The notes below the pieces were generated by a model that worked only from the letters and a program-made list of their open reading frames with translations, searched no databases and was not told the DNA's origin. From Elsinoe ampelina (lineage: Eukaryota), in assembly GCA_010093995.1 (NCBI GenBank), contig ML992504.1, positions 186,001 through 250,000 on the forward strand: a stretch of 64,000 nt of DNA, written 5' to 3'. The position numbers and the translations under genes were made by a program. This document shows, one piece after another, positions 9,730-10,542 of this stretch (positions are counted from its first letter, which is position 1; the number at the start of each line of letters is the position of its first letter).

Positions 9730-10542
9730 TAATTGTTCTAGTTATATATATTAAACTTTATATAATAGTAATAAGTAAGCTATAAATCTTTCTAGTTAAT
9801 AGTAACTTACTTAGTATAAATATAATTAAGATTTATATCTAAGAATATTAGTATCTATAATAGTATTAAATTTAAATAATAGATACCTTCTATATACTTA
9901 ATAATAAATACCTCTATTACTTTCTAAATATAAGAACTAGTATAGTAACTAGCGTAGTAAGTATACTATACTAGCTTACCTCGGAGATACTATTCTCTAT
10001 ACTCTATAGAAGAATAAAATACTTCTTACCTATAGAATAGATAGAGTAGAGATTAGTCTTATAATAATCGAAGGTATACTTATATAATATCTATTCTATA
10101 CCTATATACTTATCTTTCTAGCTTATATATCCTACCTTTATTATACTAAAGTACTTTAAGAGCTTTAGATTAGATATAAAAGCTTTTATCTTAATAAATA
10201 TAGTCTCTAATAATCTTATAGATAAGATAGCTAAAGAGAAGCTTATAGTAGAGAAGTTTAGTTAAGTTTTAGTAGTAATAAATCTCTTAGAGAGTAATAG
10301 CTATATAGTATTAGTAATATAATATAATAATTAATTGTAATAATTATACTACTAGCCTTAAACTTATTCTTCTTTCTAGGAGTAATAGTTATCTTATAAG
10401 GTTACTTAGTAGTAGAAGTTTTATATCTATTAGATAACTTACTCTTATAACTATAACTATAGGTTAGTACTATAGTACCTCTCTTAGGAGATATAGTTAC
10501 TATTACTACTAAGGATAGAGTCTTAGGAGGTACTTATAATAT
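9730..10542 (-). pseudogene. Histone H3-like gene copy 1 (RIP-mutated, interrupted by a solo LTR); ends approximate
   Basis: De-RIP translation: ..[42 protein letters not shown](S/G)RLVREI..KSFRIQSEALEALQ[LTR]EATEAFIVEYME|DTNLNCIHAKRVTINQKDLQLARR. Introns at 10349-10301 and 9886-9839 with GT, CTAA branch point and AG. Confidence 0.9.
9929..10145 (+). mobile_element. Solo LTR of family A inserted in H3-like copy 1
   Basis: 217 bp similar to 1619-1829, TATA..TATA (RIP-mutated TGTA..TACA) ends, 5 bp TSD CTAAA at 9924-9928 and 10146-10150. Removing it restores the H3 frame (LQ-EA). Confidence 0.9.

Follow-up and report, generated by a model that had tools for sequence, protein, structure and literature searches.

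What kind of histone gene lies in an AT-rich block of the Elsinoe ampelina genome, and how far does it depart from histone H3? The window (the whole 64,000-nucleotide stretch that was analysed, positions 186,001 to 250,000 of contig ML992504.1, assembly GCA_010093995.1) had been predicted, from its letters alone, to contain two H3-like genes, the first with a longer N-terminal tail unrelated to that of H3. This first gene was found where predicted, on the minus strand, inside a block (window 1000-20500) with a GC content of 21-29%, compared with ~53% in the gene-rich part. It is almost certainly a copy of a ~7-kb hAT transposon, rendered inactive through repeat-induced point mutation (RIP), interrupted by an LTR and internally deleted, whose terminal cargo is a spliced H3-like gene of the same lineage as the H3L gene of Pyrenophora tritici-repentis (Ptr).

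A search of the same genome with window positions 9500-10800 gave 52 matches: the window itself; 12 further copies, in each of which a gap separates two matching parts; one partial copy; and 26 that cover the gap only. The 12 copies, here called family A together with that of the window, are 88-92% identical to the window copy. An alignment of the 13 copies shows 1192 departures from the consensus, of which 1169 are C>T or G>A, lying for the most part at CpA/TpG and CpG; this pattern is that of RIP. The window copy itself is dead. Only three of the 78 genome matches to an intact H3L protein are stop-free, and these lie in the host H3 and CenH3; no live H3L copy was seen among the 78.

Structure of the interrupted gene

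The gene has three exons, all read on the minus strand. Exon 1 (10350-10494), taken from its likeliest start, comprises 48 codons (MPPKRG and onwards) to the equivalent of H3 G44 and encodes a rewritten tail. Intron 1 (10301-10349; 49 nt, phase 1) lies in the codon for H3 T45, and occupies the same place in the sister families B1, B2 and C, in the relatives P0178, P0028 and P0156 and, by eye, in the Ptr consensus. Exon 2 (9887-10300) runs from alphaN to alpha2, with a PF00125 match in sister copies; its 63 whole codons, against 60 in host H3, give a loop 1 that is three residues longer than in H3, as had been predicted. The second H3-like gene (19035 to ~18509) also has the +3 loop, which is thus not special to the first, and has introns at the same two places, again in agreement with the prediction. 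Intron 2 (9839-9886; 48 nt, phase 1, GT..CTAA..AG) lies in the codon for H3 D106, at the same place in B1, B2, C and (by eye) the Ptr consensus. Exon 3 (9729-9838) encodes L2, helix 3, LARR-YYxKF and a short extension, and ends at a stop at 9740-9738 or 9731-9729, both of which are present in 13/13 copies. The introns of host H3 are at R8 and A114, while those of host CenH3 are in the tail and at RLV|REI; as the T45 and D106 introns differ from both, the H3-like gene is not a plain copy of either host gene.

Exon 2 is split by a 217-bp insert (9929-10145) with a 5-bp target duplication. The insert is private to the window copy, being absent from 12/12 other family-A copies, and has 26 other matches in the genome, one of them at window ~1610-1830. 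Based on the 5-bp duplication and the RIP-compatible TG..CA ends, we read it as a solo LTR. It was also considered as an intron, which was rejected given its presence in one copy only, its target duplication and its repetition elsewhere; similarly, the match at 1610-1830 was considered as a third H3L gene and proved to be the same LTR. Neither the solo LTR nor the hAT context formed part of the original prediction.

A hAT transposon as carrier

The left end of the family-A element is a 16-bp terminal inverted repeat (TIR) that occupies 9361-9376 on the plus strand. The same terminus is found in 12/12 other copies with different flanks, and seven of these have its inverted counterpart at the far end, ~6.95 kb away; the window copy retains the left TIR only. 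In the seven copies with both ends, an 8-bp target duplication is exact in three, RIP-compatible in one and absent in three. The match to PF05699 (hAT dimerisation) exceeds the cut-off in two of the full family-A copies, with 31 and 27.1 bits, and falls short of it in a third (E 0.017); this region is gone from the window copy. The shared TIRs, the 8-bp duplications and the presence of PF05699 inside two elements identify family A as a hAT transposon.

In the family-A layout the H3-like gene is at one end, pointing outwards, and the transposase is on the other strand. The central region, ~3.5 kb between the two, has an 80-140 bp match to family B and is described here as a stretch of DNA rather than as a reconstructed ORF. 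A remnant of the transposase region is found in the window at 10778-11722 (plus strand), which corresponds to nt 4799-5736 of a full copy 6974 bp long; the window copy lacks nt 1222-4798. This internal deletion of ~3.6 kb joins the transposase remnant to the H3L promoter, and the right side of the element is lost after nt 5736.

The neighbouring DNA contains other mobile sequences. A 16-bp stretch that resembles the family-A TIR (three mismatches; 11721-11746) is located exactly at the end of the family-A remnant, just before an LTR element, and is possibly the end of another hAT. The LTR element (11747-18058), which is RIPped and bounded by ~200-bp direct repeats, lies between two hAT remnants, and another copy of its repeat was found at ~3260 (3260-3470). 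In the consensuses, the word ACATTCC occurs three times upstream of the family-A H3L (window ~10716-10755) and once upstream of that of family B (~19140); it resembles a TEA/AbaA site.

Start codon and N-terminal tail

The original prediction had the protein start at 10542, with a consistent frame of ~54 codons upstream of PRKK (10380). The distance is indeed 54 codons, but the frame is interrupted by TAA at 10536 and 10404, each in 13/13 copies. An open frame is in any case no evidence of coding in RIPped DNA, since any TAA or TAG is revertible and other frames are nearly as open: a second consensus frame has two stops over 10494-10351 and one over 10605-10495, the same as the coding frame. 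The argument that frame consistency shows coding was therefore rejected.

The candidate starts differ in other respects. The predicted codon at 10542 is ATA in 13/13 copies and is preceded by T, a pyrimidine, at -3. By contrast, the codon at 10494 is ATG in 4/13 copies with A at -3, so that the SPKRG of the earlier reading is a RIP product of MPPKRG. Another in-frame upstream ATG candidate (10603-10605, minus strand), which would give an 85-residue tail, is ATG in 1/13 copies, also with A at -3. In the 13 relatives that begin with Met, the first 16 residues include 3-6 K/R, while starts at 10494, 10542 and 10605 allow at most 5, 2 and 0, respectively. The gene probably began at MPPKRG (10494), starts at 10542 and 10605 being, each on its own, unlikely, and the 16 additional codons (10495-10542, minus strand) are more likely 5′ UTR. 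The tail would then be 48 residues long (Met to the G44 equivalent), compared with 45 in H3, and not 64. The predicted tail is thus unrelated to that of H3 but probably barely longer, as the best-supported start lies 16 codons downstream of 10542.

A protein starting at 10542 or 10605, with a tail of 64 or 85 residues, is the less probable reading, though one that deserves consideration. The frame is RIP-revertible throughout, and many ancestral CpA/TpG sites have been lost in all 13 copies, so ATA in 13/13 is compatible with an ancestral ATG at 10542. Tails in the H3L relatives range from 39 to 63 residues, the longest being 61 and 63, which makes a 64-residue tail possible, and at 10605 there is the single ATG with A at -3. 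Both longer tails are nevertheless poor in K/R at their N-termini when set against 13/13 relatives, the 10542 codon is ATG in no copy and has T at -3, and the stretch resembles the leaders of the host H3 and Ptr H3L genes, which are C/T-rich. While the copies point to a start other than the predicted one, profile, word and metagenome searches found no intact relative with an A-type tail, so the start at 10494, although preferred, is not fixed. A 10-bp word (PPK codons) at 10530-10521 is repeated at 10491-10482, 39 nt apart, one upstream of and one right after the likely ATG, and is possibly a trace of an old duplication of the 5′ end of the gene.

The tail was compared with 21 targets by RIP-aware alignment, in which all RIP reversions were allowed and from which P0321 dropped out. 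As predicted, it has no ARTK and is unrelated to the H3 tail: against host H3 the z score is -0.5, with 43/60 shuffles scoring as high, whereas the family-B2 tail gives z 3.1 (1/60) in the same test. The best matches of the family-A tail are the H3L P0178 (z 3.1) and the CenH3 P0365 (z 2.6), both marginal for that many trials, and host CenH3 gives z 1.5 (3/60). A KSSGG reading in the tail recalls KSTGG, without raising the tail score. Of the predicted ancestral reading, some copies themselves show KGK and PRK, and T-R-G-R appears in contigs from another organism, while the Q of KQPRK is inferred. These contigs come from run X3 (organism B), which on L009:1090-2152 has less RIPped family-A relatives over 29/30 bins and is the best lead to an intact A-type tail. 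T-R-G-R is read at the loose end of two of them, R-Q-G-E in loop 1 and R83 are also restored, and among the differences listed 82/102 places are RIP reversions.

C-terminal end

Following LARR, the family-A copies read Y/H-Y/H-A/T-K-F-D/N-A/T-Y/H-D/N, TAG (9740), two codons and a second TAG (9731). H3 has six residues after LARR; the family-A protein ends three or six residues past the H3 end if 9740 or 9731, respectively, is the true stop, and later if both stops are RIP products. The ten relatives with complete ends have 9-14 residues after LARR, i.e. 3-8 past H3, beginning with YY in eight, YF in two and YH in none. A C-terminal extension shared by the H3-like genes, as had been predicted, is thus real in kind and family-wide (10/10 complete relatives), but short (+3 or +6). 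The Y-H-x-K-F on which it had been based is not itself past the end, as YYxKF occupies the same five positions as LRGER of H3; for its second residue, Y is the likelier reading and H the less likely. CenH3s also extend three residues further than H3.

Four H3L lineages in one genome

Four H3L lineages are present in the genome, A, B1, B2 and C (13, 6, 10 and 20 copies aligned, respectively), and both introns are common to all; B2 and C are located outside the window. The second gene in the window belongs to B1 (18509-19035, minus strand; MAR.. tail), and PF05699 matches are found ~2.6 kb downstream of two sister B1 copies. Across the lineages the tails start with MPPK, MAR(K/T)K or MARKK. Exon 2 has 63 whole codons in A and B1, 60 in B2 and 65 in C, compared with 60 in host H3 and 64 over the same span in host CenH3, so that loop 1 differs from that of H3 by +3, +3, 0 and +5. 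These exon 2 lengths differ by whole codons only, whereas intron 2 varies freely in length (48, 51, 50 and 55 nt). The diversified family that had been proposed is borne out by the shared introns, the different tails and the common C-terminal extension; its members, however, are not host paralogues but dead cargo genes of hAT elements.

The position of the gene within the element also varies. In family A and in Ptr, the H3L is at the end of the element on the opposite strand to the transposase. In family B (G000:C1:2776217-2779336 and G000:C7:1071772-1074849) the hAT domain is ~2.6 kb downstream on the same strand and the H3L is internal, which indicates that the H3L module was rearranged between lineages. 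Upstream of the B1 copy in the window there is an 88-nt inverted repeat (19083-19279; 80% complementary), which would fit a symmetric bidirectional promoter between the H3L and the central region. In 6/6 B1 copies the F84-equivalent codon is TAG, whose reversion could give W, the residue of CenH3, or Q/R; B2, its sister family, has F there and a loop like that of H3.

H3L, H3 or CenH3

RIP-aware profiles assign family A to H3L (-79.5 bits) ahead of CenH3 (-129.1) and H3 (-132.2), with H3L the best in all three segments. In a resolved tree, from which the long-branch rows P0367 and P0325 were left out, the four RIPped families group with 13 H3L proteins (support 99/99). When RIP-ambiguous codons are masked, family A instead falls inside CenH3 (98/84), and an AU test does not reject A+CenH3 (p 0.13). 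We did not adopt the masked tree, since masking takes out the diagnostic codons that contain TA (G102, Y103, N110, S124 and Y130), and these cannot be reconciled with CenH3 whichever RIP reversion is assumed. Based on these comparisons, family A appears to be an H3L whose likeness to CenH3 is convergence at most, a residual doubt being left by the masked tree and the AU test.

The resemblance to canonical H3 (host L031) lies in the histone fold, with up to 69% RIP-compatible identity over 86 columns. Family A differs from it in having no ARTK/ARKS tail, a loop 1 of +3, introns elsewhere, an end past residue 135 and changes of the C110N, I124S and L130Y type, at positions which we take to be near the H3-H3' interface.

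The likeness to CenH3 raises the possibility that family A mimics or derives from CenH3, having gained centromeric-histone traits and used them to reach centromeric chromatin. The traits in question are a divergent tail, a longer loop 1 (+3, compared with +4 in host CenH3), replacement of Q68 (by S) and of F84, a C-terminus that is a few residues longer and an X-P-K start. X-P-K is described as the motif of N-terminal methyltransferases (PMC6465133). After Met removal it is fitted by family A (PPK), by host CenH3 (MAPK) and by the Elsinoe australis H3L P0344 (MGPK), as well as by 13/46 roughly selected CenH3-like matches; from its sequence, the family-A protein may have used this motif. MPPK is, on the other hand, a frequent start of basic proteins. 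The second-best tail match is also a CenH3, but the tail against host CenH3 itself gives z 1.5, and the profiles prefer H3L by 50 bits and in every segment. The F84 codon permits only I or V and not W, a CenH3 feature in the account of fungal CenH3s used for comparison (PMC3156773 and PMC2995078; W at F84 from the former). The residues of helices 2-3 are of the H3L type, the introns of host CenH3 are elsewhere and the sister family B2 has no loop insertion. Finally, family A is multicopy transposon cargo, whereas the genome already has its own intact CenH3 (L036), a single host gene. In spite of the masked tree, an origin in, or mimicry of, CenH3 is therefore very unlikely, and we treat family A as H3L.

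Relatives and earlier reports

Profile and word searches revealed open-frame H3L relatives in P. tritici-repentis (P0394, P0395), P. teres, Pyrenochaeta, Paraphoma, Massariosphaeria and Elsinoe australis, and in metagenomes. The signatures GY.E, N at C110, DS.LA and YY are found across these fungi of different orders, although some of the relatives are truncated or damaged gene models. The metagenome models P0178, P0028 and P0156 continue across intron 1 at PG|T and extend into intron 2 at FE|D. A profile search of cluster representatives with the RIPped exon 2 gave two H3L-type proteins among the 150 matches listed, the rest being swamped by canonical H3, and a protein atlas search returned generic H3 clusters only. 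A scan of metagenome DNA with the H3L C-terminal pattern gave no matches; one with a short H3L alignment gave 80 loci, 23 of which were translated, and none of these is an H3L with both introns, so an intact element was not obtained from the metagenomes. Among the intact relatives, the hAT setting is known for Ptr H3L only.

H3-like cargo in hAT elements has already been published (2013, 2019), and the copy in the window is a further example. The 2013 report (Manning et al.; PMC3538342) concerns H3L in a hAT 'transduplicating' element of P. tritici-repentis, 5.6 kb long, with a central ORF, tail insertions and ESTs. Family A is similar to that element in most aspects of its design. Both are hAT elements with TIRs in which the H3L is at one end, pointing outwards and head-to-head with the central region, and the transposase is on the other strand; both genes have the two phase-1 introns, the GY.E and DSQLARRY signatures, an altered tail and a C-terminus past the H3 end (+4 in P0394). 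The Ptr consensus (PMC6710886, supplement 2), inspected by eye, shows introns of 48 nt at T45 and D106 and the family-A layout. The two differ in that the Ptr copies are reported to be mostly intact with ESTs while those described here are all RIP-dead, that the Ptr tail keeps MARTK and has 63 residues whereas that of family A starts with MPPK and probably has 48, and that the Ptr loop 1 is of H3 length and its element shorter than the ~7 kb of family A. In addition, the genome studied here has four lineages.

Dhillon et al. (2019; PMC6710886) found H3-like genes in the hAT elements of the Mycosphaerellaceae, in hundreds of copies killed by RIP, and took these for retrocopies of host H3 that lack introns and are independent of Ptr. 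Like the copies described here, these are hAT cargo with 8-bp target duplications, all killed by RIP in genomes where host H3 is intact. Unlike in that description, the gene studied here has two introns that are missing from host H3. A retrocopy of host H3, which would have no introns and spliced host junctions, is therefore rejected for family A; an ancient retrocopy with later intron gain is possible. In the published C. zeae-maydis consensus (supplement 2), as judged by eye, the first H3-like copy is intronless, but the second is interrupted at T45 and D106 by GT..AG introns (51 and 52 nt), which conflicts with the retrocopy reading. An overlooked intron may explain the 16-residue insertion in P. 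fijiensis in the same paper. Since the introns are common to Ptr and C. zeae-maydis (by eye) and absent from host H3 and CenH3, the sequences favour a single, old H3 lineage carried by transposons rather than host H3 transcripts captured time and again.

What the histone may have done

The anatomy of the element, the structure of the gene, its inactivation, its membership of the H3L lineage and the divergence of its tail can be read from the copies; what the gene did for a live ancestor is a separate matter. We propose that a live element expressed its own H3 variant, which would have paired with host H4 through the conserved histone fold and entered nucleosomes. As the tail is without the contexts of K4 (ARTK) and K9 (ARKS), and R stands in the place of K36, such nucleosomes would have been unable to carry the usual marks of the host at these positions, and this loss of markable contexts could have blunted silencing of the element. 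Tail and loop 1 would have changed from one element lineage to the next, with the fold and the splice sites retained. The tail is not, however, free of markable lysines, since it keeps a K27-like R-K-T context (QPRKT). Expression, nucleosome entry and benefit to the element are inferred; taken together with the nature of the element, this explanation is probably correct overall, the mechanism by itself being evenly balanced between acceptance and doubt. The available text of the H3L element papers contains no experiment that places any H3L in chromatin.

The gene could instead have been a passenger: an ancestral hAT would have picked up an H3 gene a single time, and the tails, loop 1 and C-termini would then have drifted, unconstrained and without benefit to the element. 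This is rather doubtful, although Manning et al. suggest drift for H3L (PMC3538342), all copies in the present genome are dead and, as noted above, some relatives are damaged. A RIP-immune transversion test, limited in power by its 19-24 four-fold sites per pair, showed no excess at four-fold sites over second positions in 6/6 family pairs (p 0.23-1); purifying selection is thus not established, as a passenger would have it. Unconstrained drift fits less well with the open frames, the retention of both splice sites and the shared signatures across fungal orders, with changes in exon 2 length that are in-frame only and with tails that are K/R-rich in 13/13 relatives. A bolder form of the shielding proposal is quite unlikely: H3L would be an old, dedicated transposon histone variant, the chromatin readers of the host being the opponents of its tail and loop 1 in an arms race, and family A would have converged on a CenH3-like design in which unmarkable or centromere-like nucleosomes shield the element or steer its insertion.

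A search of the literature on transposon-borne histones and fungal H3-like genes found, among the papers matched and listed, neither a published test of H3L shielding its element nor the phrase 'transposon-encoded histone'. If H3L does shield its element, this would be a eukaryotic transposon that uses its own core histone against host silencing. Compared with the published elements, the present analysis adds the introns common to the Ptr and (by eye) C. zeae-maydis elements and not to host H3 or CenH3, which speaks against independent capture. It also adds that, across the four lineages and their intact relatives, the fold and an extended C-terminus of the YY type are retained, in contrast to the variable tails (39-63 residues) and loop 1 (0 to +5); the intact relatives thus offer a way to test the function.
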